Counted from the whole stretch's first letter, positions 31,469 through 58,285 are shown. The stretch: 63,765 nt of DNA, filler included, from 9 parts of 9 records of this genome joined end to end with filler, not necessarily neighbours in it, one strand, 5' to 3'. Notes: generated from the letters alone by a model not told the origin. Numbers and translations: made by a program.

Positions 31469-31469
31469 G

Positions 31470-33422
31470 CTGGAGGTTGAAGGAGGGGTAATTGGGGTCC
31501 TCAAGGTCGAAACTAAAATGCGCAAAATTGAGCCCGGCGGGGATGAAGAGTTTACCTACTTTAGCGACCAGGATGAACTTGTATTTGATTTGATTGCGAG
31601 ATGTGTGGCAATTGCCATCGAAAACTCCCGTTTGCTTGAATCCAAAAGGCTTTCTGAACAGATAAGCAAAAATCCGAACAACTTGCTGGTTGAGTTGCAC
31701 ACTTTTGTCAAGAGCCATTGGCAGGCCGAAAACACCCTGAAACAGGTGGCGGACCTGCTCAGGGGCAAACGCGACAACACCGCGACAATCATCGAAAACT
31801 ATGCCCGCTTGCTGGGAACTAATTTTTCAACCGACTCACTTAGGGCTATCCTCAACAATATTGGGCCGATGAAAGAATTGATGGCCGGCAGTGAAAAATT
31901 CTGCACACTCTACAACACTTTTGTTAATGCCATGACAGTACAGACGCCGGCTGACATATCCAGCTGCTGCTCAGCGAGTAACATACTGATGCTGAATGAT
32001 ATTGTGCGCGGTGGCGATGAGTATTTATACGAGGCCAGCACCTGCCTTAAAAACATCTATGATAGGATAGCTGCGATTTTCCGCAATGAGCCGTACCATG
32101 TGAACGAAACAACGCCTTATGCTGAGGCCATCGCCACTCTCAAGGATTCCCTCAATGTCGATTTGGAGGCTGTTTCCCAACCCGAAAGACAGATCATCAA
32201 ACGCATTCTCAAACATTGGTTGAAAGCTATTCAAAAGTCCCATCAGGCCTTTCGCAGGGTACAAAATCCCTATATTGCAGGACCGGCCATAAAGCCGATC
32301 AAGGGCGGACTTTTTTTCGGCCGAAGGGATATTTTTCAGTGGGTAGCGGAAACCATCATCAGCGGGGATCAAAAAAACATTCTACTGCTGCATGGCCAGA
32401 GACGAATGGGAAAGACCTCTATCCTATTGCAACTCAATGACGGTGAGATGGGAGCGCAACTGCGAAACAGGAAAGACAATCCCGTGCTCCCCGTATTCAT
32501 CGACCTGCAGGGTTGCGGGGATAATACCGCCACCTTCATTGCCTTCATCATATCCAGAACAGACCAGAAACTTCGAGATATGAAGTTTGTAAGCTACAAT
32601 ATTGATCCGCCAATTAAAGAAGAAATTGCGGCGTCTCCTTTTCAGACATTTAACGATTACATGGAAAGGGTCAATACCATCGTTAGCCCTAATTTGCTGG
32701 TATTGATGCTGGATGAATTCGAGCAAATCGATATTCTTGTAAAGAAAAAAAAGGTAGATACTGGAATCTATTCAACCCTGCGATTCCAAACCCATCTTTC
32801 AAATGTCACTTATATCCTTGCTGGCAGTCATTCGCTTGAAGAGTTGTCCGGAGAATATATTGAAAATTTCAACATTGCGCGTCACAAAGAGGTGGGGTTC
32901 ATGAACCACCGTGATGCCAACGATCTTATCAAGCAGCCTGTTCACGGCCAGGTCGTTTACGAGGAGATGGCCGCAAAGTACCTCGTCCGCATCACCAATG
33001 GTCATCCTTTTCTAATTCAGCAACTTTGCCACGGCATTATCGATGAGATGAACCGTCGTGGAGAAAGCAATTATATCACTTCCGGGAATGTGGATTTGGC
33101 CATAAAGCGTACTATAGAAGACAGTACCCATATCCATTTTTACGATACCTGGCGGCAATCAACAGAAAATGAATTAAAAATGATTAGGTATATCGCCAGC
33201 AATTTGAACAATCAATCAAAGGGAATGTCATGTACCACTCTTGAAGAGGAGTTGTTATTACCCACCGACGATGTTGATTCTACTTTAAAAAAGCTAAATA
33301 AACGCCACCTAATCTCGCACCTACCAACTGATGCGGCTACACCAGAACAACCCATGAAATATCAACCAACCATCCTCCTATTTTATCATTGGGTAAACCG
33401 GCATTTCCCGAATGCCAGATAA
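31470..33422 (+). CDS. GAF domain + STAND-type P-loop NTPase + winged-helix-like tail (5' truncated)
   Basis: The frame is open from the contig edge. VIGVLKVE...FSDQDELVFDLIARCVAIAIENSRL is a GAF end. NTPase motifs: NPYIAG...FFGR, Walker A GQRRMGKT, Walker B LMLDEFE, TNGHPFLIQ. Confidence 0.8.
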   Translation: MEVEGGVIGVLKVETKMRKIEPGGDEEFTYFSDQDELVFDLIARCVAIAIENSRLLESKRLSEQISKNPNNLLVELHTFVKSHWQAENTLKQVADLLRGKRDNTATIIENYARLLGTNFSTDSLRAILNNIGPMKELMAGSEKFCTLYNTFVNAMTVQTPADISSCCSASNILMLNDIVRGGDEYLYEASTCLKNIYDRIAAIFRNEPYHVNETTPYAEAIATLKDSLNVDLEAVSQPERQIIKRILKHWLKAIQKSHQAFRRVQNPYIAGPAIKPIKGGLFFGRRDIFQWVAETIISGDQKNILLLHGQRRMGKTSILLQLNDGEMGAQLRNRKDNPVLPVFIDLQGCGDNTATFIAFIISRTDQKLRDMKFVSYNIDPPIKEEIAASPFQTFNDYMERVNTIVSPNLLVLMLDEFEQIDILVKKKKVDTGIYSTLRFQTHLSNVTYILAGSHSLEELSGEYIENFNIARHKEVGFMNHRDANDLIKQPVHGQVVYEEMAAKYLVRITNGHPFLIQQLCHGIIDEMNRRGESNYITSGNVDLAIKRTIEDSTHIHFYDTWRQSTENELKMIRYIASNLNNQSKGMSCTTLEEELLLPTDDVDSTLKKLNKRHLISHLPTDAATPEQPMKYQPTILLFYHWVNRHFPNAR

Positions 33423-33434
33423 GGGGGCACTATA

Positions 33435-34817
33435 TTGCGTTTATTCATGACCATAATATATATTTTTCTACTATATATTTTTATCACCGGCCAAACACCG
33501 ATCCCTTCTACTACTACTGGCACTCCTGTGGTCACGGACCTTATTAAAGAGTATTTTGCCCTGATTACTGCTTTACTGGCGATTGTCAGTACAATTTTGG
33601 GCTTTATATATCAACGGCGTAATTTTAAGATAGAATCAGAAAAACAAAAGCTGGAAATAGAGAAACTAAAGCTGGAATTAGAAAAACTAAAAAAGCAGTT
33701 TGTACCCCAAATTGTAACTCTTCTAAACTGGTTAAAAAAAACGAAACAACATCCAGATTTACTTACAGCTCAGGTCGGTATCAAAAGTCCCTATATTTTA
33801 GGCCCACCAATTATCCATCCTCAAAATTTTCATGGCAGACACTCTGAAGCCGGAACTATTCTAACCCTTTGCACAGATGGCGACCAGTTACAGTCGGTGT
33901 CTATTGTAGGCGCGCCCAAGTCTGGTAAGACATCACTGTTAAACTATATTAAACACCCCAACACCTTAGGAGAATATAATCTTGCCAAAATCATACCCGT
34001 TTATTTAAATTTACAAGCTGAGCTTAAAAATCCAAGTGATTTTTATACCTATTTATTAAAGGAAACGGCCAAGGCCATTGAAAAATACGGCATAGCAACT
34101 GAACCCATCCCCTATCTGTCACAGGGTTTAGGAGTTGCTGATGCAAAGGCTTTTTTCGAAAATGCTACGAATCAATTTAGTTTCTTAATAATATTAGATA
34201 AATTCGAAAAAATAATAAAAAAGCAAAATTTTGAAGATACTTTTTTTGATAATTTGCGATCACTTTCCACCGAACTAGATATTGGTTGGATAACGACTTC
34301 CTATTGTCCTTTAGCTAAATTATTTGACGACGGAATATTATCCCCCTTTCAAAACGTCATTTTTAAAAATATTATCCTCGGCCCACTTTCCGAAAAAGAT
34401 GCTAGTGAATTAATTAAAAATCCAACTATTAAATGCGAGCATCAATTTTCTGAGAAAGATGTGGAGTATATTCTCAAGCTCGACAGATTAATGCCATTTG
34501 AAATTCAAGTTGCCTCATACGCCTTACATAAAGCCAAAAATGAAAATCCAAGAGATTCTGAAGTCTACAAAATAAATGCCCGCCAGGAATACAAAAGAAT
34601 AATGGAAAATCATTACCAACGCTGCTGGAGAAAACTGGATCCCAATGATCAAGCGATTCTTACATCCATAGCCAACGATAAATCCAACATAATGGGCAAG
34701 CGCAAACCGACAGTCATGGAATTAGTCAATTACGGCTATATCAAGAAAGAAAGAGATACATACCATATAGCAGGTGCTGTCTTTAAGAATTGGATTATAG
34801 AAAATCATTGTCGATAG
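33435..34817 (+). CDS. Membrane-anchored coiled-coil + STAND-type NTPase
   Basis: Signal-like and TM segments, KLEIEKL heptads, SPYILG...FHGR, GAPKSGKT, altered Walker B IILDKFE, LGPLSE and MPFEIQ. Start is TTG 33435 or ATG 33447. Confidence 0.78.
   Translation: MRLFMTIIYIFLLYIFITGQTPIPSTTTGTPVVTDLIKEYFALITALLAIVSTILGFIYQRRNFKIESEKQKLEIEKLKLELEKLKKQFVPQIVTLLNWLKKTKQHPDLLTAQVGIKSPYILGPPIIHPQNFHGRHSEAGTILTLCTDGDQLQSVSIVGAPKSGKTSLLNYIKHPNTLGEYNLAKIIPVYLNLQAELKNPSDFYTYLLKETAKAIEKYGIATEPIPYLSQGLGVADAKAFFENATNQFSFLIILDKFEKIIKKQNFEDTFFDNLRSLSTELDIGWITTSYCPLAKLFDDGILSPFQNVIFKNIILGPLSEKDASELIKNPTIKCEHQFSEKDVEYILKLDRLMPFEIQVASYALHKAKNENPRDSEVYKINARQEYKRIMENHYQRCWRKLDPNDQAILTSIANDKSNIMGKRKPTVMELVNYGYIKKERDTYHIAGAVFKNWIIENHCR
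33647..33688 (+). repeat. 2 x 21-bp coding tandem repeat (heptad duplication)
   Basis: AAAGCTGGAAATAGAGAAACT / AAAGCTGGAATTAGAAAAACT, 19/21 identical. Confidence 0.75.
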
Positions 34818-34942
34818 CCCCTAACAACTACAAAACTTGTGCACTGCTGATGAATAAAATCGATCTTCCGGTAGAGAGTGGACATGGTGATTCCTTCCAC
34901 TTCGCAGATACGACGGAAAGGCATCTTGTTGACGAGAAGACG
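34805..34942 (-). pseudogene. HTH-containing gene fragment truncated by the HUH element
   Basis: Reads RLLVNKMPFRRICEVEGITMSTLYRKIDFIHQQC, a helix-turn-helix-like segment, and begins exactly at the element's left edge. Confidence 0.4.
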
Positions 34943-34963
34943 GGGGCTATAAGGGGGCTATAA

Positions 34964-34987
34964 GGGACATCCATTAATATATAAGTT
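34964..34987 (+). repeat. Left 24-bp inverted repeat GGGACATCCATTAATATATAAGTT
   Basis: Exact reverse complement of 36033-36056. Confidence 0.95.
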
Positions 34988-35014
34988 GACAAGCCATACC
35001 GCTCTTTCTACACT
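34986..35014 (+). promoter_or_regulatory. sigma70 promoter of the transposase (leaderless)
   Basis: TTGACA-N17-TACACT with ATG 6 nt downstream; the -35 box overlaps the inner end of the left repeat. Confidence 0.7.
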
Positions 35015-35020
35015 TATTTC

Positions 35021-36034
35021 ATGCCACGCCAATCCCGCATAGACGCGCCGGGTGCTTTGCACCACATAATCATCCGTGGTATCGAGAGAAAACCCATTTT
35101 CAAGGACGATGAGGATCGGGATGCATTTCTCGAAAGAATTGAAAGGATCTTCACGGAATCCGCCACGCCCTGCTTTGCCTGGGCGTTGATGACCAATCAT
35201 GTCCATTTGTTAACCCAAACTGCAGATATCCCCCTCGCGGCCCTGATGCGTCGCCTGCTTACCGGGTACGCCATGGCCTTTAATCGAAGACACAGAAGAC
35301 ACGGCCAGCTATTCCAGAATCGGTACAAATCAATTCTTTGCCAGGAGGAAACTTACCTGCTTGAATTGACCCGTTACATCCATCTCAATCCGCTACGCGC
35401 AGGCATTGTTACGACTCTCAGCACATTGGATACGTATCCGTATACCGGACACAGTACAATCATGGGGCATAGTAGGGCGGAATGGCAAAACGATGCCAAA
35501 ATTTTGTCATTGTTTGCCAAGACCAGAAAAATGGCACGGCGGAAATACCGGGATTTTGTTGAAAAGGGGATTAACTTTGGTCGCAGGCCAGAGTTGGTTG
35601 GCGGCGGACTGATTCGCAGCCTGGGAGGTTGGAAAAAGGCGAAAATTCTTCTGAAAGGGCAGGAGAGAGTTAAAGGAGACGAACGAATTTTAGGAGACAC
35701 CGAGTTTGTCCAACAGGTTCTGGACCACTGCAATGAGGCATACTCCCGACGGCAGAGATATAACGCTCAAGGTCTGAATCTAACTTCTTTGTCTCAAAAG
35801 GTGGCCGACTATTTTGGCCTGCCGGCCAAACAACTGCTCGCTCCCGGCCGATATCCTGCCGTGGTAAAGGCCCGTAGCGTATTGTGTTATCTGGCTGTCA
35901 GGGAACTCGGCATTACGGGTACCGAGCTGGCTCGCAAGATTGGGGTCACCCAGCCTGCAGTCAGCTTGTCGGTAAAACGGGGTGCTGAAATAGTCGCCGA
36001 AAGAAAGCTCCGGATCGACGATTTCATCAATTAA
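35021..36034 (+). CDS. REP-associated tyrosine transposase-like protein (Y1_Tnp + C-terminal DnaA_C-like HTH)
   Basis: MPRQSR, HHIIIRG, MTNHVHLL (HUH), FNRRHRRHGQLFQNRY, YIHLNPLRAG; C-terminal ARSVLCYLA...ELARKIGVTQPAVS. Confidence 0.92.
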   Translation: MPRQSRIDAPGALHHIIIRGIERKPIFKDDEDRDAFLERIERIFTESATPCFAWALMTNHVHLLTQTADIPLAALMRRLLTGYAMAFNRRHRRHGQLFQNRYKSILCQEETYLLELTRYIHLNPLRAGIVTTLSTLDTYPYTGHSTIMGHSRAEWQNDAKILSLFAKTRKMARRKYRDFVEKGINFGRRPELVGGGLIRSLGGWKKAKILLKGQERVKGDERILGDTEFVQQVLDHCNEAYSRRQRYNAQGLNLTSLSQKVADYFGLPAKQLLAPGRYPAVVKARSVLCYLAVRELGITGTELARKIGVTQPAVSLSVKRGAEIVAERKLRIDDFIN

Positions 36035-36056
36035 CTTATATATTAATGGATGTCCC
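36033..36056 (-). repeat. Right 24-bp inverted repeat
   Basis: AACTTATATATTAATGGATGTCCC; overlaps the transposase stop codon. Confidence 0.95.
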
Positions 36057-36116
36057 CATAATTCCCCAGACCGGGAACTGGTCGACAGTTTGAATCCAAA
36101 TTCTTAGGAGGTTGTT

Positions 36117-36497
36117 ATGCCGTTTGTCAGAATTTATATAAAAAAGGGAACATCTATAGCATTTCGTCAGGAGATCAGTCAGTCTGTTCATCAGTCGCTG
36201 GTGAGCTGTTTCGGGATACCGGAAGATGATCTGTTTCAGGTCATCGAAGAGGTGGACGTGCAGAATTTGATCTTTCCGAAACAGTATATGGGCATCCCCC
36301 ATTCTGAAGATATGATCTATATTCAGATCACCGCAAAAGGGGGAAGAACAGCAGCAATGAAGCAGCAGCTTTACCGGTCGATTGCAGATGAAGCGTACCG
36401 CCGGACAGGTCAGAGTCAGGACGATATTATTTTGATTTTGCAGGAAAACACCGAAGTGGACTGGTCGTTCGGTCGGGGAATTGCTCAGCTGATTTAA
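36117..36497 (+). CDS. Tautomerase-family protein (4-OT/MSAD-like)
   Basis: N-terminal Met-Pro, IPEDDLFQ, GRT...K and DWSFGRG; AGGAGG Shine-Dalgarno. Confidence 0.9.
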   Translation: MPFVRIYIKKGTSIAFRQEISQSVHQSLVSCFGIPEDDLFQVIEEVDVQNLIFPKQYMGIPHSEDMIYIQITAKGGRTAAMKQQLYRSIADEAYRRTGQSQDDIILILQENTEVDWSFGRGIAQLI

Positions 36498-36641
36498 CCG
36501 GGAGAAAGATGGGACTTGAGATCGGGATGGCGATGCTGTATTTTAGATGCGACATCGAATGAATCACTATTGAGAGGTGCGGGATGCCGGGGATTGAGTC
36601 GTTGATTGTTTTTTTGGTTGCAATTGTGGTGTAATGGGGCA

Positions 36642-51829: not shown

Positions 51830-51877
51830 GTCAGATTAAAACGTTCTGACTTAAAAAAACAGTTGAGGATGATTGCG

Positions 51878-52756
51878 ATGAAATATAAATTAATTGTAAC
51901 AGATGTAGATGGAACGCTACTTAATAACCAACATTCTATCTCTAGAGATACTCTTAGATCGATAAATCTAGCTCGTGAAAATGGTATGTTATTCACACTT
52001 GCTACAGGTAGAAATCACATCAATACCATTAGAACTGCACGAAGAGTTGGTGTCAAAACTCCTATTGTTTGCAATGATGGTGCTCTTGTTATTGATCTGG
52101 GAACAAATAAAGTTATCTATGAAGAGAGAATTCCTGAAAATTGCGCAAAGGGTATTCTTGAAGTACTGAATAAATTTGATTTTCAGTACTCTATGCATTT
52201 TATGCATGCATCTATTATTAATAAAAAACTAAAATTTCCTATTAAAAAACTTATCCAAAGATATGGTTTTAATCTGGGAATGTTAAAAGCGAGTATTCAA
52301 TTAACAAAAGAAAAAAAGTATTTCACACATATGAGTAGTGATGATATTTCTAATTTTATGAATGAAAATGACGATTATCCATTCAAAATTAGTGTATTTG
52401 ATAATGAAGCTAACCCGGATAGATTTGAAGAAGCAATAAGAGAGATAAATGAGCAGTTTGATGAAGATATTGAGATTTCTATGGTTACAAGTTTCGGATT
52501 TGAACTTGTGCCAAAGGATATATCAAAAGCAGAAGGATTAAAAAAACTGTGTAAATATCTTGAAGTTTATCCTGATCAGGTTGTTGCATTCGGTGATAAT
52601 TATAATGATGCAGCTATGATTAAGTTTGCCGGTATGGGAGTCGCTATGGGTAATGCGAAAGAAAAGATAAAATTTATCGCTGATGTTATAACTGATTCTA
52701 ATGATCATAACGGTATAGGAAAAGTCATCGATAAATTAGTGTTAACTAAAATTTAA
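51878..52756 (+). CDS. Cof-type HAD-IIB hydrolase
   Basis: DVDGTL, LATGR, SKAEG, FGDNYND and AMGNA. Confidence 0.92.
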   Translation: MKYKLIVTDVDGTLLNNQHSISRDTLRSINLARENGMLFTLATGRNHINTIRTARRVGVKTPIVCNDGALVIDLGTNKVIYEERIPENCAKGILEVLNKFDFQYSMHFMHASIINKKLKFPIKKLIQRYGFNLGMLKASIQLTKEKKYFTHMSSDDISNFMNENDDYPFKISVFDNEANPDRFEEAIREINEQFDEDIEISMVTSFGFELVPKDISKAEGLKKLCKYLEVYPDQVVAFGDNYNDAAMIKFAGMGVAMGNAKEKIKFIADVITDSNDHNGIGKVIDKLVLTKI

Positions 52757-52760
52757 AACA

Positions 52761-52803
52761 TAAAATAAGAGCACTTCTCACTGAGAGAAGTGCTCTTATT
52801 TTA
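52761..52803. terminator. Bidirectional intrinsic terminator
   Basis: Perfect 19-bp inverted repeat TAAAATAAGAGCACTTCTC / GAGAAGTGCTCTTATTTTA between convergent genes. Confidence 0.85.
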
Positions 52804-52820
52804 GTTAACTAAAAATTTTA

Positions 52821-54083
52821 TTATTTTCTCTTTTCATTAAGTTTTAAATAAACCCTATCAATAAACTCCTGATTTTCCTCAAACATCTCATTTTGAAGAT
52901 AAAATCTGCTAAAACTAGCCATTAATTTTGTTGAGTATTTTTTCGTCAACATATCAATAAACCTAGATTCTATATGCTTAATTGCTTTATTTCCCATTTC
53001 ATCATATAGTCCTATTTTCAACTCAATTATCTCTTCAGAAACTTCTGAAGCACTTGATTTTTCAAGAGCCTCTTTTAAGTAACCTAAAGCATCATTTTTC
53101 TCATCCAAAAATACAGAAATTTTAGCTATCTCATATAGCTCATACTCAGAAAGACAGACATTTTCCTCATCACTTAATATTTTTTTGATTTTAGTATACG
53201 TTTTTTTTATTTCTCTTCTTGGAATTCTCTGTTCTTTTTTTAATTCCAAAATTTTCAGTGTAGCTTTAATGAAATCAAGCCCTGCAGCTTTTTCTGTTAT
53301 CTTTTCATAATAAAACTCAGCTTCACTTAACCTATTTAGACTTTGATAATTTTCAGCCATTAGACTGAATACTTCATTTTTTCTTTGATAATCTCTAGCA
53401 GCAATTTTTACGTTATCCAGCAATTTGAGTGACTCTTTGTACTCTTTTAACTCTTTAAATCCCTTAGCAAAATTAAATAACATTAGATTTTTAGAATCAG
53501 TTTTAATTTTATCCAAAAATGGTCGTAAACGGAAATATAGAATATCAAGTTCATTATATCTTTCGATGTTAAGATAACACTCTGATAATTTCTCTCCTAT
53601 TAAACTGATCTCTTTAATTTGCTTATTCGTTAGAAAATACTCTAAAGCTTTTTCAAAATAGAAAGCTGATGAAATAAATTCATTATTTTCATATAACCTC
53701 TCACCTATTTCAAAATAAATTAATGCCTTATTTTGACTGGTGTTTTGAATTATTTCACTCTCTAACTCTTTTAGTTCAGCAAGAAACTTATCACTGTACA
53801 CTTTTTCCTTAATCAATTTAATGATTTGTTCAGCTTTTCCAGACATTTCCTCTTCTGTCTCAACAAAAAAATCCTCTAGTTTGATTTCAATATTTTTTCC
53901 CTTTAATAAATTATTGAAATTTTTTGTTATTTCCTCAGCCTTGTTTCGTGTGATTTTACGTCTGTTCTGCTCAACCATCCCAATGTAACTTCTAGAAATG
54001 TGCTCTCCTGCGAGTTCATATTGCTTAATTCCGTATTTCTTTCTAAGCTGCATGAGTTTATCTCCACTGGTGTTATAACTCAT
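52821..54083 (-). CDS. XRE-HTH + TPR-repeat transcriptional regulator
   Basis: LRKKYGIKQYELAG..ISRSYIGMVE HTH, followed by helical TPR-like repeats. Confidence 0.8.
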   Translation of the reverse strand: MSYNTSGDKLMQLRKKYGIKQYELAGEHISRSYIGMVEQNRRKITRNKAEEITKNFNNLLKGKNIEIKLEDFFVETEEEMSGKAEQIIKLIKEKVYSDKFLAELKELESEIIQNTSQNKALIYFEIGERLYENNEFISSAFYFEKALEYFLTNKQIKEISLIGEKLSECYLNIERYNELDILYFRLRPFLDKIKTDSKNLMLFNFAKGFKELKEYKESLKLLDNVKIAARDYQRKNEVFSLMAENYQSLNRLSEAEFYYEKITEKAAGLDFIKATLKILELKKEQRIPRREIKKTYTKIKKILSDEENVCLSEYELYEIAKISVFLDEKNDALGYLKEALEKSSASEVSEEIIELKIGLYDEMGNKAIKHIESRFIDMLTKKYSTKLMASFSRFYLQNEMFEENQEFIDRVYLKLNEKRK

Positions 54084-54304
54084 ATGTTCCCCTCCATTAT
54101 TCTGCTTAACTTCTCTTCAATGTTCTCCCTTTACTTTTGTGTTAACATAATCACATTGTTTTTCTTTTTTCCCTATTAATATATAATACTAAATTTTTCC
54201 ATAGCTTTCAAGACAATTATTAAATTAAATCAAGATTTTATTTATTTATCTCTTTTTCATAGCGTCAATTTAAATTTACATACAACTTAGTCACAGAAAG
54301 TCAT

Positions 54305-54337
54305 AAAAAATGCACACCTATAAGCGAAGGTGTGCAT
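54305..54337 (-). terminator. Intrinsic terminator of the tmcAL-hydrolase-MFS operon
   Basis: ATGCACACCT / AGGTGTGCAT stem with a T tract on the minus strand. Confidence 0.75.
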
Positions 54338-54377
54338 ATAAAATGACTTTTTTTATTAAATTAATTACTTAAAATGT

Positions 54378-55685
54378 TCAACTGTTTCTTTTCTCATTAT
54401 ACAATGAATAAAAATATGCCGAAGTCACAAAGAAAATCATAGAAAAAATACATGTCAAGTATACTCCGCTCTTTGTTACTTTGTCAATTTTAAATTTAAA
54501 AGATACCAAAATTAATGGTAAAATGGCAATTGAAACTAAAAATGACATTTTAAGAAAGAAACCTTGTATTCCAAAATAAATCCCTTCAAGTTTCGTATTA
54601 TACTTCTCTGAATTCATAACAACTATCTCACTTAGCATTGCTGGCGGGAATATAAACGCTGCTCCTGCTACAGGAATTCCCATTAAAGCAAATATAACAA
54701 ATCCAAACCATGCAGGGAATATTTTACCTACTCCAAACATCATTAATGAAAATACAGCTAACATTATTAAATTTATTATCATAATTTTTCTATATCCAAA
54801 TTTTTCTGATAATTTATTCACAGGGTAAAAACAAGCTCCTGATGTCAGGAATAAAAGTGCTGATGCAATTGTAATCTGATCTTTACCCATTCCCATTAAA
54901 TCCTCTACATAATAGTTTATAGAAGCTCTCAAAGTATTAAATCCTATAAAGAAAAATAATAATCCAAGAAGATAGTAAATAAAATCTTTATCACTAAATG
55001 CTAACTTTAAAGAATCCTTAAAATTACCGGGCTCTTTATGAGGATGAGAATAATCTTTCTCTTTTAATCCGAAAGCCATCGTATATGTACTAATTAATGC
55101 AAATACCGTTAATGTAATTACCATTAACCTAACACCCAGTTCAGTATCTCCTTTTCCTAATACACTAATAAGTTTAGCAGGTATAATCATTCCAACGGCT
55201 GAATATATCAATCTAAATACTGATTGCCATGTTGATAAATTAAGTCTATCTTCTTTCGTATGTCCTATCTCAGGTATAAGAGCATTATAAGGCCCCCCGA
55301 CGAAAGTGTAAAAAGTAAAGAAGAGTGAACCAATAACTGCTAAATATATAAATGTCATTGTTTCTGATGTTTTAATAGGATAGAAAAATGCTATTGTTGC
55401 AAGTCCCAATGGAAGTCCTCCAAATAGTATAAAAGGAATTCTTTTCCCCCATTTCGAATCAAAACTATCTGACCAATACCCTACTAAAGGATCCATAATC
55501 ATATCTACAAATCTGGATATAACTAATGCCAACGATATAAGAACCGCCGCCATAATAGGTTTTAATCCTGAGTTTTCAGGTGGCAGATAATAATATAACA
55601 CCCATTGTGCAAATATTTGATCGATTACTGCGTAACCTACACCAAGTCCGTATAGAACCTGTATTCTTTTGGTTAATTTCTTCAT
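54378..55685 (-). CDS. MFS transporter, GPH/MelB-like
   Basis: DMIMDPLVGYWSD..SKWGKRIPF, PYNALIPE and EGIYFG. Confidence 0.9.
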   Translation of the reverse strand: MKKLTKRIQVLYGLGVGYAVIDQIFAQWVLYYYLPPENSGLKPIMAAVLISLALVISRFVDMIMDPLVGYWSDSFDSKWGKRIPFILFGGLPLGLATIAFFYPIKTSETMTFIYLAVIGSLFFTFYTFVGGPYNALIPEIGHTKEDRLNLSTWQSVFRLIYSAVGMIIPAKLISVLGKGDTELGVRLMVITLTVFALISTYTMAFGLKEKDYSHPHKEPGNFKDSLKLAFSDKDFIYYLLGLLFFFIGFNTLRASINYYVEDLMGMGKDQITIASALLFLTSGACFYPVNKLSEKFGYRKIMIINLIMLAVFSLMMFGVGKIFPAWFGFVIFALMGIPVAGAAFIFPPAMLSEIVVMNSEKYNTKLEGIYFGIQGFFLKMSFLVSIAILPLILVSFKFKIDKVTKSGVYLTCIFSMIFFVTSAYFYSLYNEKRNS

Positions 55686-55727
55686 TCTTCCTCCTAATGT
55701 TAATCTTTTCAATTATAGTCCAAAAAA

Positions 55728-56660
55728 TTAGTTTCTCATAAATATATCTACGGTCTCAGCGTACTCAGCTTTATTATCTCTATAAACAATAACGTGCTTC
55801 CCCTTTTCAAACAAATGAAGAAAGATATTGTTTTTTCCTTTTAACTCCATTAGTTCTTTCTTAAGTATCTCATATGGTGTTGTTGTGTCTTCAACTGATT
55901 GTAGTATAAGTGTTTTTATATCTGTTTTTTGAAGCAAATAAGCTAATTTTAATTTATAAAGCTTTCCTCTCACTACAAAGTTAAATGCAATAGGTGCAAT
56001 TATTTTGAAATGATGAGTATAAAATTTATTTCCTGCTGCTTTTAATATCATTTCCCGTGAATTACTAAGAGGACTGTCTAAGATCATTTTTTCCACTACT
56101 ACATCCATATTTTGCAGTTTATGATTATATCTATAAACAGCCAGAACCGATCCAAGGGCTCCCATTGAAAATCCATATAAAACAAATGTTTTTTTATTAA
56201 AATTATTTCTCATATATTTAATCGCTGAAAAAATATCCTCTGAATATACAAAGCCTAATTTGGTTAAACCTTTGTCAGAAGCACCGGAATTTCTCATATT
56301 AACAAGCAATAATGAATAATCCTTCGTATATCCCTTCTCCTTCAAAAGCTCAAGATACTCAAGTAAAATCAGTCTATTCGTTCCACGTCCGTGAATTAGA
56401 ACCATAGCTTTATTAGAATTTTTATTCTCAGACGGTATATGCCAAGCAGTTAATTTTTTATTTCCTGAATAAAAAAAACACTCCTGATAATCCATTCCAT
56501 AAGTAGCAGGAGTTGAAACGTCATTTATTCCATACTTTTCCATTCTACGTGAACAAGCATATACATCCTCATCTCTGATATGCTTCGTGTACATTATTTT
56601 ATACAGTGCATATAGCCCAGTTCCTACTATTATTAATATAATTAATGCTATAAATATCAT
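55728..56660 (-). CDS. Membrane-anchored alpha/beta hydrolase
   Basis: N-terminal TM, IHG, nucleophile elbow GFSMG, plus Asp and His positions. Confidence 0.88.
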   Translation of the reverse strand: MIFIALIILIIVGTGLYALYKIMYTKHIRDEDVYACSRRMEKYGINDVSTPATYGMDYQECFFYSGNKKLTAWHIPSENKNSNKAMVLIHGRGTNRLILLEYLELLKEKGYTKDYSLLLVNMRNSGASDKGLTKLGFVYSEDIFSAIKYMRNNFNKKTFVLYGFSMGALGSVLAVYRYNHKLQNMDVVVEKMILDSPLSNSREMILKAAGNKFYTHHFKIIAPIAFNFVVRGKLYKLKLAYLLQKTDIKTLILQSVEDTTTPYEILKKELMELKGKNNIFLHLFEKGKHVIVYRDNKAEYAETVDIFMRN

Positions 56661-57838
56661 AAATTTGCCACCACCGGTCTTTTAGGTTCATCATATGGGT
56701 TCTTTATCTTATAAATTGAATCTGTCATCATTTCATACTCTACAACTTTTCGTTGCTCAGCTGTAAAATCAGCGCTAATATTTTTAAAAGTTGTTACCAT
56801 AGGAACTTCCATCTCTTTTTTAATTTTACTCATGTACTCTCTGCCTTTTTTATTAAAAGCCAGAACTCTGATATAACTTAACTCTTTTCTCATCTCTTCC
56901 ACAAACTCTTTTTTGGTATTCAATAATATATGCGTCAATACTCTTTTTACCCTTGCATTGGTATATCGTTTCGTTAGAAGCATATTATAAAATTCACTAA
57001 AGTCTTTTGATTTTATACACGCTTCATGGAGTCTGTTTTCAAATCCTACTTCAATATCTTGGATATTCAACAGTTCATCTTTATTTGTTAATATTCTATA
57101 TTTTATTAAGTCGTAATATTTACCAAGAGATATTATTCTGTTCTCATCCATCTCTTGTTTAATCAACTTATAACTCTCTACAGGAACCGATTTTTCTATA
57201 TTACTAATCTCATTATTTATTATATAATTTCTAATATTTGTAGCAGATGTTATATTCTCTACTATCTCTTCTGAATAAAATCCTGCTTTCTCTCTTTTAA
57301 TAGTTTTGAACTTAATTTGATAATCTTTTTTTAATGCAGCTTTGATATATTCCAATCCCAATATATTGTTGGGTGATAGGAGATTTTTTTCTCCTGTAAT
57401 CTCAGTCAATACTTTATTTGCTGCATTTGGATATGATATTCCCTGTTTCATCTCTTTTTTAATTTTATTATTAAATTCATCACTTAGCTGAAGTTTAGCT
57501 ATCTCCTTAAGCTTGTTAATATCGCCTGATTCAGAGCCGAATGCTATGTCACTTGCTTTCATATGTTCAAGTATCATTACAGCTCCCTCAGCAAATATCT
57601 CCGCACTTTGATTTGAGTAAAATGTAGGCAACTCAATCACCAGATCAACTCCGTTGTTCAGGGCCATCTCTGCTCTTTTCCATTTATTAATAACTGCAGG
57701 TTCACCTCTCTGTAGAAAGTTACCACTCATAACAGCTATACTCACATCAGCATCTGTTTTTTGCATAGATTTCTGTAAATGCAGTTTATGTCCGTTATGA
57801 AATGGGTTGTATTCAACGATTAATCCTGTTGCTTTCAT
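56657..57838 (-). CDS. tmcAL: tRNA(Met) cytidine acetate ligase (HIGH nucleotidyltransferase)
   Basis: VEYNPFHNGH, MSGNFLQRGEP, FGSESG, PNNILGLEY and SATNIR. Confidence 0.92.
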   Translation of the reverse strand: MKATGLIVEYNPFHNGHKLHLQKSMQKTDADVSIAVMSGNFLQRGEPAVINKWKRAEMALNNGVDLVIELPTFYSNQSAEIFAEGAVMILEHMKASDIAFGSESGDINKLKEIAKLQLSDEFNNKIKKEMKQGISYPNAANKVLTEITGEKNLLSPNNILGLEYIKAALKKDYQIKFKTIKREKAGFYSEEIVENITSATNIRNYIINNEISNIEKSVPVESYKLIKQEMDENRIISLGKYYDLIKYRILTNKDELLNIQDIEVGFENRLHEACIKSKDFSEFYNMLLTKRYTNARVKRVLTHILLNTKKEFVEEMRKELSYIRVLAFNKKGREYMSKIKKEMEVPMVTTFKNISADFTAEQRKVVEYEMMTDSIYKIKNPYDEPKRPVVANL

Positions 57839-58285
57839 AAATGTATCCTCTTTCTTTATCCAAAATTCTTTCCTTGTAAGTCATATTCACAACTATGCTA
57901 GTCTACATTATAACACTCAAGTTTTATATTTTCAAATTGAAAATACAGAAAAATATTTTGGCAGCTAATTCATTGCAAAAATATTTTTTTATTTTGTTCT
58001 TGAATTAATTATGCTCATAGTATATAATACTAACTAGTATTATATCAAACTTAACACTGTTCACATATACTTAAATAAATTTTTAGAAAAAGAACCAATT
58101 TGATTTTAAAAAATATATACTTAGAAAAACAATTTAGAATATTTTCATTATTTTTCTTAACAAAGTTGCAAAGAGGGATTTTTTTAAGCAATTCAAAACA
58201 GAAGCGTTTTTGAATTAAAAAATCACACTGAAGCACTGCAAGAGTATTTTTTAGCTCAAAATCAAAAAGATTCAATTTGATTTTA

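Follow-up and report, generated by a model that had tools for sequence, protein, structure and literature searches.

What could be the common task of two adjacent, related NTPase genes, of which one encodes a sensor domain and the other a membrane anchor? This question is raised by a locus at positions 31470-34817 of a 63,765-nt stretch of DNA (hereinafter, the window), which consists of 9 contigs separated by 8 spacers (N runs around TTAATTAATTAA). A preliminary description, made from the sequence alone, had suggested that the two genes share one STAND-type NTPase scaffold and might form a hetero-oligomeric signalling or defence module. Following up on this suggestion, we consider it fairly probable that the locus encodes a split STAND/ORC-like NTPase switch of the nSTAND2-operon type, which comprises a GAF sensor and a membrane output subunit and has a role in biological conflicts or abortive infection. 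The two genes are arranged as follows:

31470..33422, + strand: sensor NTPase gene (P0001), cut at its 5' end, 650 codons plus stop (open reading frame (ORF) call, 31470/31518-33422)
33423..33434, + strand: 12-nt spacer with a GGGGG run (33423-27), Shine-Dalgarno-like, ahead of the TTG at 33435 (reading of the sequence)
33435..34817, + strand: partner (output) NTPase gene (P0002), 460 codons, TTG start (ORF call; the homologues P0005-P0007 start at the same position, MRLF/MKSF)

The stop codon of the first gene, TAA, occupies positions 33420-33422 and the TTG start of the second gene is at 33435, so that the two co-oriented genes are indeed 12 nt apart. A promoter/terminator scan found no terminator between them; the scan was not usefully above shuffled sequences (15 promoter-like sites vs 6.7 +/- 4.3 in the shuffles, and 4 terminator-like sites vs 3.4).

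Conservation of the pair in other genomes had been named beforehand as a test of the proposed module, and the pair proved to be conserved. We compiled 155 loci encoding P0001 relatives (hereinafter denoted by L numbers) from GTDB species genomes and JGI metagenomes and searched their ORFs with purpose-built hidden Markov models of the partner, the GAF region, the linker and the sensor NTPase; an ORF containing the GAF region and/or the linker together with the NTPase was classified as sensor-type. There are 20 such ORFs, 2 of which end at a contig end, and in all 18 that are followed by downstream DNA, the next gene downstream, on the same strand, encodes an NTPase of the partner clade. The gaps between the sensor and partner genes, measured in 17 loci, range from -22 to +36 nt, except for L082 (-122 nt), where the first possible start is over-extended. 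The flanking genes vary between the loci, and only the pair itself is conserved. The wider family shows the same arrangement, with a partner-clade gene located downstream in 83 of the 97 loci that contain a sensor-clade gene and downstream DNA, within 300 nt in 68 of these. In phylogenetic trees, the sensors form one clade (support 100/100), as do the partners (98/95), with one extra ORF from L027 nested inside the latter. The subclades of the sensor and partner trees mirror each other, and the respective distance matrices are correlated (Mantel r 0.899; 0 of 2,000 permutations reached this value), which shows that sensor and partner are co-inherited as a unit and is not in itself proof of co-evolution of their interface.

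Tandem duplication of NTPase genes is common, as exemplified by a recent third copy in L001, and the two genes might accordingly be paralogues that act independently, with no physical or functional coupling. This explanation appears exceedingly improbable given the adjacency of the genes in 18 of 18 loci with gaps that are near zero or overlapping, the anciently separate clades with mirrored topologies (Mantel r 0.90), and the complementary split of sensor and output domains between the two genes, which is described below.

The two proteins are paralogous, and the single NTPase scaffold reported for both genes is borne out by all comparisons: the motifs originally listed are present, BLASTP aligns the two sequences with an E-value of 1e-16 (22% identity over 354 aa), and hhalign of the two family alignments yields a probability of 99.9 (E 1.5e-31, 365 columns). 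In the AlphaFold2 (AF2) models, both proteins consist of a P-loop nucleotide-binding domain (NBD), a helical lid and a winged helix, the layout of the nucleotide-binding oligomerisation (NOD) module of STAND/ORC-like NTPases. Among solved structures, P0002 best matches the archaeal ATPases PAB2304 (2qen; VIA-align Z 23.1 over 316 residues) and SSO1545 (2fna; Z 20.5 over 309 residues), followed by the TIR-NLR WRR4A and archaeal ORC2 (both 17.9), a wheat resistosome (17.3), ZAR1 (14.4), CED-4 (14.0), MalT (13.6) and Avs5 (12.6). Because classic STAND and ORC chains obtain equal scores, we leave the placement within the superfamily undivided and refer to the NTPases as STAND/ORC-like. For P0001, 2qen is also the top Foldseek match, followed by ORC proteins and plant NLRs. 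The NB-ARC modules of NRC2, NRC4, ZAR1 and Sr35 are among the structural matches of the window NTPases. A sequence search of solved structures returned nothing for P0001 and only weak matches to NRC2 (E 0.07) for P0002.

The assignment to sequence families is consistent with this placement. P0002 passes the Pfam gathering (GA) thresholds of both nSTAND1 (PF20703; 30.1 bits, GA 27.1) and nSTAND2 (PF20702; 26.6 bits, GA 24; profile positions 114-275 of 279) and has no match to ATPase_2 in the Pfam scan; overall, its relatives in the partner clade score 65-89 bits on nSTAND2. P0001 just passes AAA_22 (27.8 bits, GA 27), stays under the ATPase_2 threshold (16.5 bits vs 33.2), and shows no match to Pfam nSTAND1 or nSTAND2 at E<=1. 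Full-length relatives of the sensor score 32.9-45.0 bits on nSTAND1, and three full-length relatives, P0130, P0131 and P0014, pass the ATPase_2 (PF01637) threshold of 33.2 bits (35.2-39.6 bits), so that the sensor clade borders the ATPase_2 family. NCBIfam gave nothing meaningful for either NTPase. The Pfam scan detected no C-terminal repeats in either protein, in agreement with the earlier remark that both lack the TPR or WD40 repeats of typical NLR-like proteins. The P0002 NTPase family is large (2,269 cluster representatives at E<=1e-3) with a small core (only 34 at E<=1e-30). A conserved arginine following Walker B (LRS; R275 in P0002, present in 89% of the partner clade; LR in P0001) is a candidate arginine finger. 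We also considered the winged helix as a transcription factor domain and rejected this interpretation as unnecessary: NOD modules regularly have a winged-helix domain (WHD) in third place, and the weak MarR/TrmB matches of one relative are below threshold.

The two genes differ in what is attached to the common NTPase core. In the first gene, the following parts can be delineated:

31470..31631, + strand: tail of the last GAF domain (residues 1-54), aligned with the end of GAF 3 of the relatives (purpose-built gaf.hmm, E 1.1e-18)
31632..32255, + strand: all-helical linker (residues 55-262; AF2 helices 33-259; purpose-built link.hmm, E 5.8e-73)
32256..33419, + strand: sensor NOD module with NPYIAG..FFGR, Walker A, Walker B, GHP motif and winged helix (Pfam, AF2, Foldseek)
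32394-32420, + strand: Walker A of P0001, GQRRMGKTS
32697-32723, + strand: Walker B of P0001, LVLMLDEFE

The P0001 frame is already open at the first contig base. Compared with its full-length relatives, which are 1,168-1,226 aa long, share 37-43% identity with it and contain three GAF domains joined to the NTPase by a helical linker of some 200 residues, P0001 lacks approximately 550 N-terminal residues that include two and a half GAF domains. Thus, the N-terminal GAF domain attributed to the first gene is present only as the last ~50 residues of the third GAF domain, the gene being cut at the contig end. The helical linker is conserved across the sensor clade and has no Pfam match and no usable match in the ESM Atlas. 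The motifs NPYIAG...FFGR, GQRRMGKTS, LDEFE and GHPFLIQ follow in this order, ending with the C-terminal winged helix; both Walker A and Walker B are intact (GxxxxGK[ST]; hhhhD[DE]), and the AF2 model (pLDDT 81.3) comprises the NBD (residues 286-475), the helical domain (480-550) and the WHD (555-645). GAF domains are classical signalling modules. As a separate observation, a histidine-rich motif, HPHH.G.[YF]D, is present in 2-3 copies per protein, within the GAF domains, in all 14 full-length sensors examined (including the one at 6973-10548 of L001); this is a possible ligand or metal site, with no match to a known GAF ligand.

The second gene encodes a protein of a different build:

33438..33488, + strand: first hydrophobic helix, signal-peptide-like (residues 2-18; hydropathy 2.06; AF2 helix 2-18)
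33549..33611, + strand: transmembrane (TM) helix (residues 39-59) ending in a conserved G..YQRR boundary (hydropathy 2.34; TM helix at the same place in 12 of 12 TM-type orthologues)
33612..33698, + strand: coiled-coil-like charged helix (residues 60-88) that continues the TM helix (AF2 single helix 31-88, pLDDT ~94)
33786..34814, + strand: partner NOD module with SPYILG..FHGR, Walker A, degenerate Walker B, TTSYC, DRLMPFEIQ and winged helix (AF2 pLDDT 87.4)
33909-33935, + strand: Walker A of P0002, GAPKSGKTS
34185-34208, + strand: degenerate Walker B of P0002, LIILDKFE

The signal and membrane segments that had been noticed in this gene are readily recognized, with hydrophobic stretches at residues 1-19 and ~39-59 followed by the charged helix 60-88. 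Residues 19-38, between the two hydrophobic helices, form a Thr/Pro-rich stub, and the orthologue of P0002 in L001 has a signal-type end (ASA followed by Q); the segment 60-110 of P0002 contains 13 K/R and 7 D/E residues. Among the 34 P0002 relatives detected at E<=1e-30, 25 have a hydrophobic segment ahead of the P-loop. The TM helix (33549-33620) is more than a hydrophobic stretch: inspection by eye of the N-termini of 12 orthologues shows that even distant ones keep an acidic residue on the outside, a face rich in Ser, Ala and Thr and, where the helix reaches the cytoplasm, the motif G..[YF]Q.[RK]. The second gene is, as suspected, the more AT-rich one (GC 0.32-0.40 vs 0.43-0.48 in gene 1).

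The degenerate Walker B (DKFE) is present in P0002 as described, whereas it is not a trait of the system as a whole: it is confined to the small clade of P0002, and most partner orthologues have DEFE and otherwise intact motifs. A comparison of this clade (P0002 and the three close homologues P0005-P0007) with 35 further partner-clade sequences shows that the Walker B glutamate, present in 89% of the latter, is replaced by K/K/K/N, and that AG (89% and 97%, respectively), ahead of the conserved proline of the GxP-type motif, is replaced by DR; P0002 alone has a cysteine where 86% of the partner-clade sequences have an arginine after the sensor-1 strand. The degenerate positions in P0002 are, accordingly, E256K, R291C and AG350-351DR, and this clade retains both the P-loop lysine and the Walker B aspartate. 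Among the 150 best P0002 relatives, 133 matched the motif pattern, and the residue after the Walker B aspartate is glutamate in 113 and lysine in 3. Because the P-loop is kept and both the Walker B glutamate and the glycine of the GxP motif are lost, the partners of the P0002 clade probably bind NTP and no longer hydrolyse it. The P-loop lysine was lost independently in the partners from L001 and L005 and in P0153, and most partners are intact; thus, as far as the motifs can tell, loss of catalysis in the output subunit appears to be recurrent and not obligatory. In L001 (10527-13064), the TM-bearing partner lacks the Walker A lysine (GITS), and the adjoining downstream gene, a recent TM-less duplicate, keeps GKTS, so that this locus may represent a three-subunit form of the system.

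Such changes could also signify that the copy in the window is decaying or non-functional. The long branch (0.94) leading to the P0002 clade in the partner tree, the changes in the nucleotide-binding site (E256K, R291C, AG>DR), the AT-richness of gene 2 (GC 0.32-0.40), the truncation of the sensor at the contig end and the adjoining transposase would all be compatible with a remnant. However, the truncation coincides exactly with the contig end, which makes it a limit of the assembly and not a lesion; the P0002 ORF is intact, with 47-76% identity to three full-length homologues and many invariant columns, including the P-loop, D255 and PFEIQ; and the AF2 model is confident (pLDDT 87.4). Furthermore, going by the consulted parts of PMC8195603, the subunit of the nSTAND2 operon that bears the effectors is expected to have lost catalytic residues. 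We therefore regard decay as a very improbable explanation.

The partners of the 18 pairs carry different outputs. Twelve are of the TM type: a very short outside stub leads into one membrane helix with the G..[YF]Q.[RK] boundary (by eye), and the NTPase follows after 30-90 residues of coiled coil; P0002 and the partners from L001 and L077 add the signal-like first helix and a Ser/Thr/Pro-rich stub. The other 6 lack the membrane helix and have a C-terminal extension instead: a TIR domain in three (L004, L096 and L060), a calcineurin-like phosphoesterase (Metallophos) in L006, an AAA_21/ABC-type ATPase in L087, and an unrecognised helical extension of 220 residues in L005. In the partner tree, the six are grouped as sister to the TM-type clade (97/90), a split that is matched by their sensors (99/98). 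Sensors of the wider family can combine the NTPase with HAMP-GAF, with HEAT repeats, or with C-terminal TPR plus FGE/C-lectin, WD40, sortilin or PD40 domains. Some of the partners are nSTAND2 proteins of about 430 aa with no added domain (72-89 bits), and the rest have a Pkinase, CHAT, Trans_reg_C or nucleotide cyclase output. Given that the input domains are found on gene 1 and the outputs on gene 2, gene 1 is assigned as the input and gene 2 as the output subunit, and in partners with no enzymatic output, the membrane helix with the coiled coil is the sole candidate for that role. The suggested combination of a sensor with a membrane partner in one module thus gains support from the presence of the pair in 18 of 18 loci, the co-inherited lineages and the swappable outputs at the partner position. 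Separately, L013 (7475-16501) encodes a sensor-clade NTPase of 1,234 aa followed by three partner-clade NTPases, with CHAT, Trans_reg_C and a nucleotide cyclase, respectively, and preceded by a small NTPase; this locus looks like one sensor feeding several outputs.

How might such a pair work? STAND/ORC-type NTPases typically oligomerise in an NTP-dependent manner, and TIR domains are activated by proximity. Because this behaviour of STAND/ORC-type NTPases is established, we infer that the GAF domains drive co-assembly of the NOD modules and clustering of the outputs. In the full-length sensor subunit, an active NTPase module (NBD, helical domain and winged helix) would be preceded by three GAF domains and the private linker. 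The output subunit would hold the paralogous NTPase on the cytoplasmic face of the membrane by its sole additional part, a signal-like segment with one membrane helix and a coiled coil. Binding of a small ligand to the GAF array would free the NTPase module of the sensor, which would then co-assemble with the module of the partner in an NTP-dependent fashion. As a result, the partner outputs would be clustered and, in the case of P0002, the membrane helices and coiled coils might bundle so that the membrane is perturbed or opened; in the sister systems, co-assembly would bring TIR or phosphoesterase domains together. A hydrolysis-deficient partner could be held in check by the sensor, to which control would be left.

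The biological role has to be judged primarily from the outputs, the neighbourhoods and the phyletic spread. TIR, calcineurin-like phosphoesterase and CHAT are typical conflict effectors according to the examined parts of the surveys of Kaur et al. (2020/2021, PMC7159879, PMC8195603). PADLOC gave clear matches in only two loci, L001 and L003, when 108 neighbour proteins from all 18 loci were scanned. The pair of L001 has a GmrSD-like enzyme and the S and M subunits of a type I restriction-modification system upstream. As an observation on L003 (4061-18634), the pair there is located between HmaC, accompanied by an ASCH-DUF7680 gene, and HmaB of an Hma-type system, and a TIR-KAP NTPase follows directly. 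The three-GAF sensors have a patchy distribution across Anaerolineae and other Chloroflexota, KSB1, Acidobacteriota and Verrucomicrobiota; in the 401 genomes sampled from the class that includes the L001 genome, a full-length sensor match was found in 1 (that of L001 itself), and the NTPase part alone, in 20 others. Because the sister outputs include TIR, phosphoesterase and CHAT, 2 of the 18 loci are in defence islands and the distribution is patchy, a conflict or abortive-infection-type response appears to be the most likely role.

Several observations weigh against this interpretation. There is no clear PADLOC defence gene in 16 of the 18 neighbourhoods, and many of the flanking genes are housekeeping ones (SelA, TsaD, GroEL, guanylate kinase and sugar kinases). 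A search against PADLOC-DB v2 gave no match for P0002 and, for P0001, only a 26-residue P-loop match to PDC-S01 (E 0.0019). In tblastn searches of phage and plasmid collections, P0002 had no match and P0001 only two remote plasmid matches (Acinetobacter). The TM module is N-terminal and the TIR and Metallophos domains are C-terminal, so that the exchange of outputs is not a like-for-like swap, and one membrane helix might do no more than tether the protein. The outputs of related pairs include, beside the conflict-type domains, those of the signalling type (kinase, cyclase and OmpR-type DNA-binding). The GC content of the pair contig departs from that of the other contigs, and the contig may belong to another genome. 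Finally, the local sensor gene is incomplete, and because of this, no function can be claimed for the copy in the window itself. On a related note, a remote match of the sensor NTPase module in plasmid NZ_MH220285.1 of Acinetobacter ursingii (199686-200717; 26% identity, E 2e-16) lies in a gene annotated as N-6 DNA methylase.

Some of these findings fit an explanation that keeps the paired switch and assigns it to ordinary signal transduction, where the GAF domains would sense a metabolite or a second messenger and, in response, the membrane-anchored partner would be recruited or released, serving the sensor as a scaffold or localiser and not as a killer. The mostly housekeeping neighbourhoods, with no clear PADLOC neighbour in 16 of the 18 loci, the Pkinase, Guanylate_cyc and Trans_reg_C outputs of related pairs, the lack of P0002 copies in the phage and plasmid collections searched with tblastn, and the general use of GAF domains in signalling are all in its favour. 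This explanation is a serious rival; nevertheless, we consider it rather unlikely because TIR and a calcineurin-like phosphoesterase occur within the same partner clade (97/90) and CHAT in the wider family, two loci are inside islands with restriction-modification, Hma and TIR-KAP genes, and the phyletic spread is very patchy, with the full-length sensor in 1 of 401 genomes of one class.

Is a conflict switch of this kind already known? The PADLOC check produced no meaningful match of either protein to any known system model. The closest counterpart comes from the work of Kaur, Iyer, Burroughs and Aravind (2021, eLife 10:e70394, PMC8195603), the consulted parts of which describe a computationally predicted mobile two-gene operon encoding two nSTAND2 NTPases with an arginine finger that are predicted to form a toroidal hetero-multimer; in one of the subunits, the NTP-binding motifs are eroded, and this subunit bears the variable effectors, among which GT4 and HEPN are the most common. 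Like this operon, the window pair consists of two adjacent genes with the same STAND-like NTPase family as the constant core; P0002 passes the Pfam nSTAND2 model, on which the partner relatives reach up to 89 bits; and the genomic context is mobile and patchy. Variable output modules are seen on the partner. The motifs are eroded in the P0002 clade (E256K/N and AG>DR; R291C in P0002 only), with the P-loop kept, and the Walker A lysine is lost in the partners from L001 and L005 and in P0153; in most orthologous pairs, the motifs of both subunits are intact. The effectors differ as well: GT4 and HEPN in the published operon vs membrane helix with coiled coil, TIR, Metallophos and others here, and neither GT4 nor HEPN was seen among the scanned ORFs. 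The three-GAF sensor with its private helical linker is absent from the text of PMC8195603. No form with a GAF sensor or a TM output appears in the text and readable supplements of that paper, where "GAF" occurs only as alignment residues; its neighbourhood list, fig6-data1, lies outside this comparison and may hold such forms. The accessible parts of PMC7159879 and of the other literature searched contain no GAF/TM form of the pair either, and no anti-phage paper combining GAF, TIR and STAND was found in them. Hence, as regards the possibility that the pair belongs to an already characterised system, it is a variant of the predicted nSTAND2 two-gene operon, at least as far as the consulted parts of PMC8195603 go, and matches neither a PADLOC system nor an iSTAND ternary system. 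It is best filed as a form of the nSTAND2-type operon with a three-GAF sensor, a membrane, TIR or phosphoesterase output, and an active site that is eroded only in some lineages.

The iSTAND ternary systems (MoxR-vWA-iSTAND; Kaur et al. 2020, eLife 9:e52696, PMC7159879), in the account available from parts of that paper, include an inactive STAND-type subunit, with an N-terminal TM segment in a subset, and TIR or peptidase effectors. They share the N-terminal TM segment and the TIR outputs with the pair, the partner of which is only partly degenerate. Membership in this group, which requires MoxR and vWA partner genes, was rejected: by Pfam, there is no MoxR or vWA protein on the contig or among 42 neighbour proteins of 12 pair loci. 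The Avs/bNACHT antiviral STANDs (Lee et al. 2026, Nature, PMC13581612) are presented in the consulted parts of that article as single polypeptides with large C-terminal protein-sensing repeats that are activated by oligomerisation, and a figure legend lists N-terminal TM effectors for Avs7/Dsr1-type STANDs. The common features are the STAND-type NOD modules with swappable effectors, including TM ones. This assignment was also discarded, given the lack of a PADLOC match and of a C-terminal sensor in either protein; GAF is not mentioned in the main text of PMC13581612 or in 5 of its 6 supplementary files.

The archaeal PF01637 ATPases PAB2304 (2qen) and SSO1545 (2fna), the best structural matches, have the same NBD-lid-winged-helix layout, with only 14-16% sequence identity to the window NTPases, and P0001 is under the threshold of ATPase_2. 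To our knowledge, both are single-domain proteins of unknown function.

Plant paired and helper NLRs, such as CHS3-CSA1 and the NRC helpers, seem to follow a similar logic, with a sensor NTPase that has an added domain and an executor NTPase with an N-terminal helical membrane part. The coiled-coil (CC) domains of plant CC-NLRs form channels. The parallel with plant NLR pairs and CC-NLR resistosomes (ZAR1, NRC2/4, Sr35) is an analogy only, drawn solely from matches between NOD folds: the NTPase family differs, and the window proteins have no leucine-rich repeats. Furthermore, plant NLR pairs are encoded head-to-head, whereas the genes described here are co-directional and translationally close, and the membrane part of the window partner is a predicted true TM helix that would be present before activation. 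A bolder version of the conflict reading, which we consider doubtful, takes the pair for a bacterial counterpart of the plant sensor/helper NLRs: the three-GAF sensor would license a hydrolysis-dead membrane executor that forms a resistosome-like pore, the same sensor chassis would drive the TIR and phosphoesterase sister systems, and HPHH.G.[YF]D would bind a small-molecule or metal alarm signal.

The contig that carries the pair (5,173 bp, window 31469-36641, GC 0.438) contains four genes, all on the + strand, encoding the two NTPases, a Y1 transposase and a tautomerase:

35021-36034, + strand: Y1 (IS200/RayT-like) transposase with a DnaA_C-like helix-turn-helix (Pfam Y1_Tnp, 43.4 bits), a neighbour outside the pair
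36117-36497, + strand: tautomerase gene, cis-CaaD-like (Pfam scan)

The mobile element that had been reported to follow the pair is thus this transposase. It scores 73.4 bits on the NCBIfam model REP_Tyr_transpos, under the cutoff of 80, and belongs to a multi-copy family with at least 8,000 relatives, many of them on contigs of 1-2 kb. Among the matches listed, its closest named relative is from Desulfosarcina (74% identity), and the nearest named ones also include Desulfobacteraceae (Desulfobacterales). Seven of the other 8 contigs in the window have a GC content of 0.553-0.610, and one (51830-58285), of 0.296. This contig is the second strong GC outlier besides that of the pair. The two outliers suggest a mixed bin or foreign islands, and the contig of the pair may be wrongly binned, that is, may not come from the genome of the other window contigs. 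Because the nearest named transposases are from Desulfobacterales, there is a hint that it possibly originates from a different organism than the GC-rich contigs.

As far as the literature searched goes, bacterial split STAND systems, in which sensing and execution are divided between two paralogous NTPases, are to date a matter of computational prediction only. The pair described here offers a clean, small test case, with a GAF sensor of the small-molecule type as opposed to giant protein-binding repeats, and with a minimal executor, a membrane helix and a coiled coil, that is naturally swapped for TIR or phosphoesterase in the sister systems; complete copies are available in public contigs of metagenome-assembled genomes (L001, L086 and others). 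It could reveal how signals travel between the subunits of NTPase hetero-oligomers, whether STAND-type immunity receives input from small-molecule sensing, and whether NLR-like proteins attacked membranes before eukaryotes arose.

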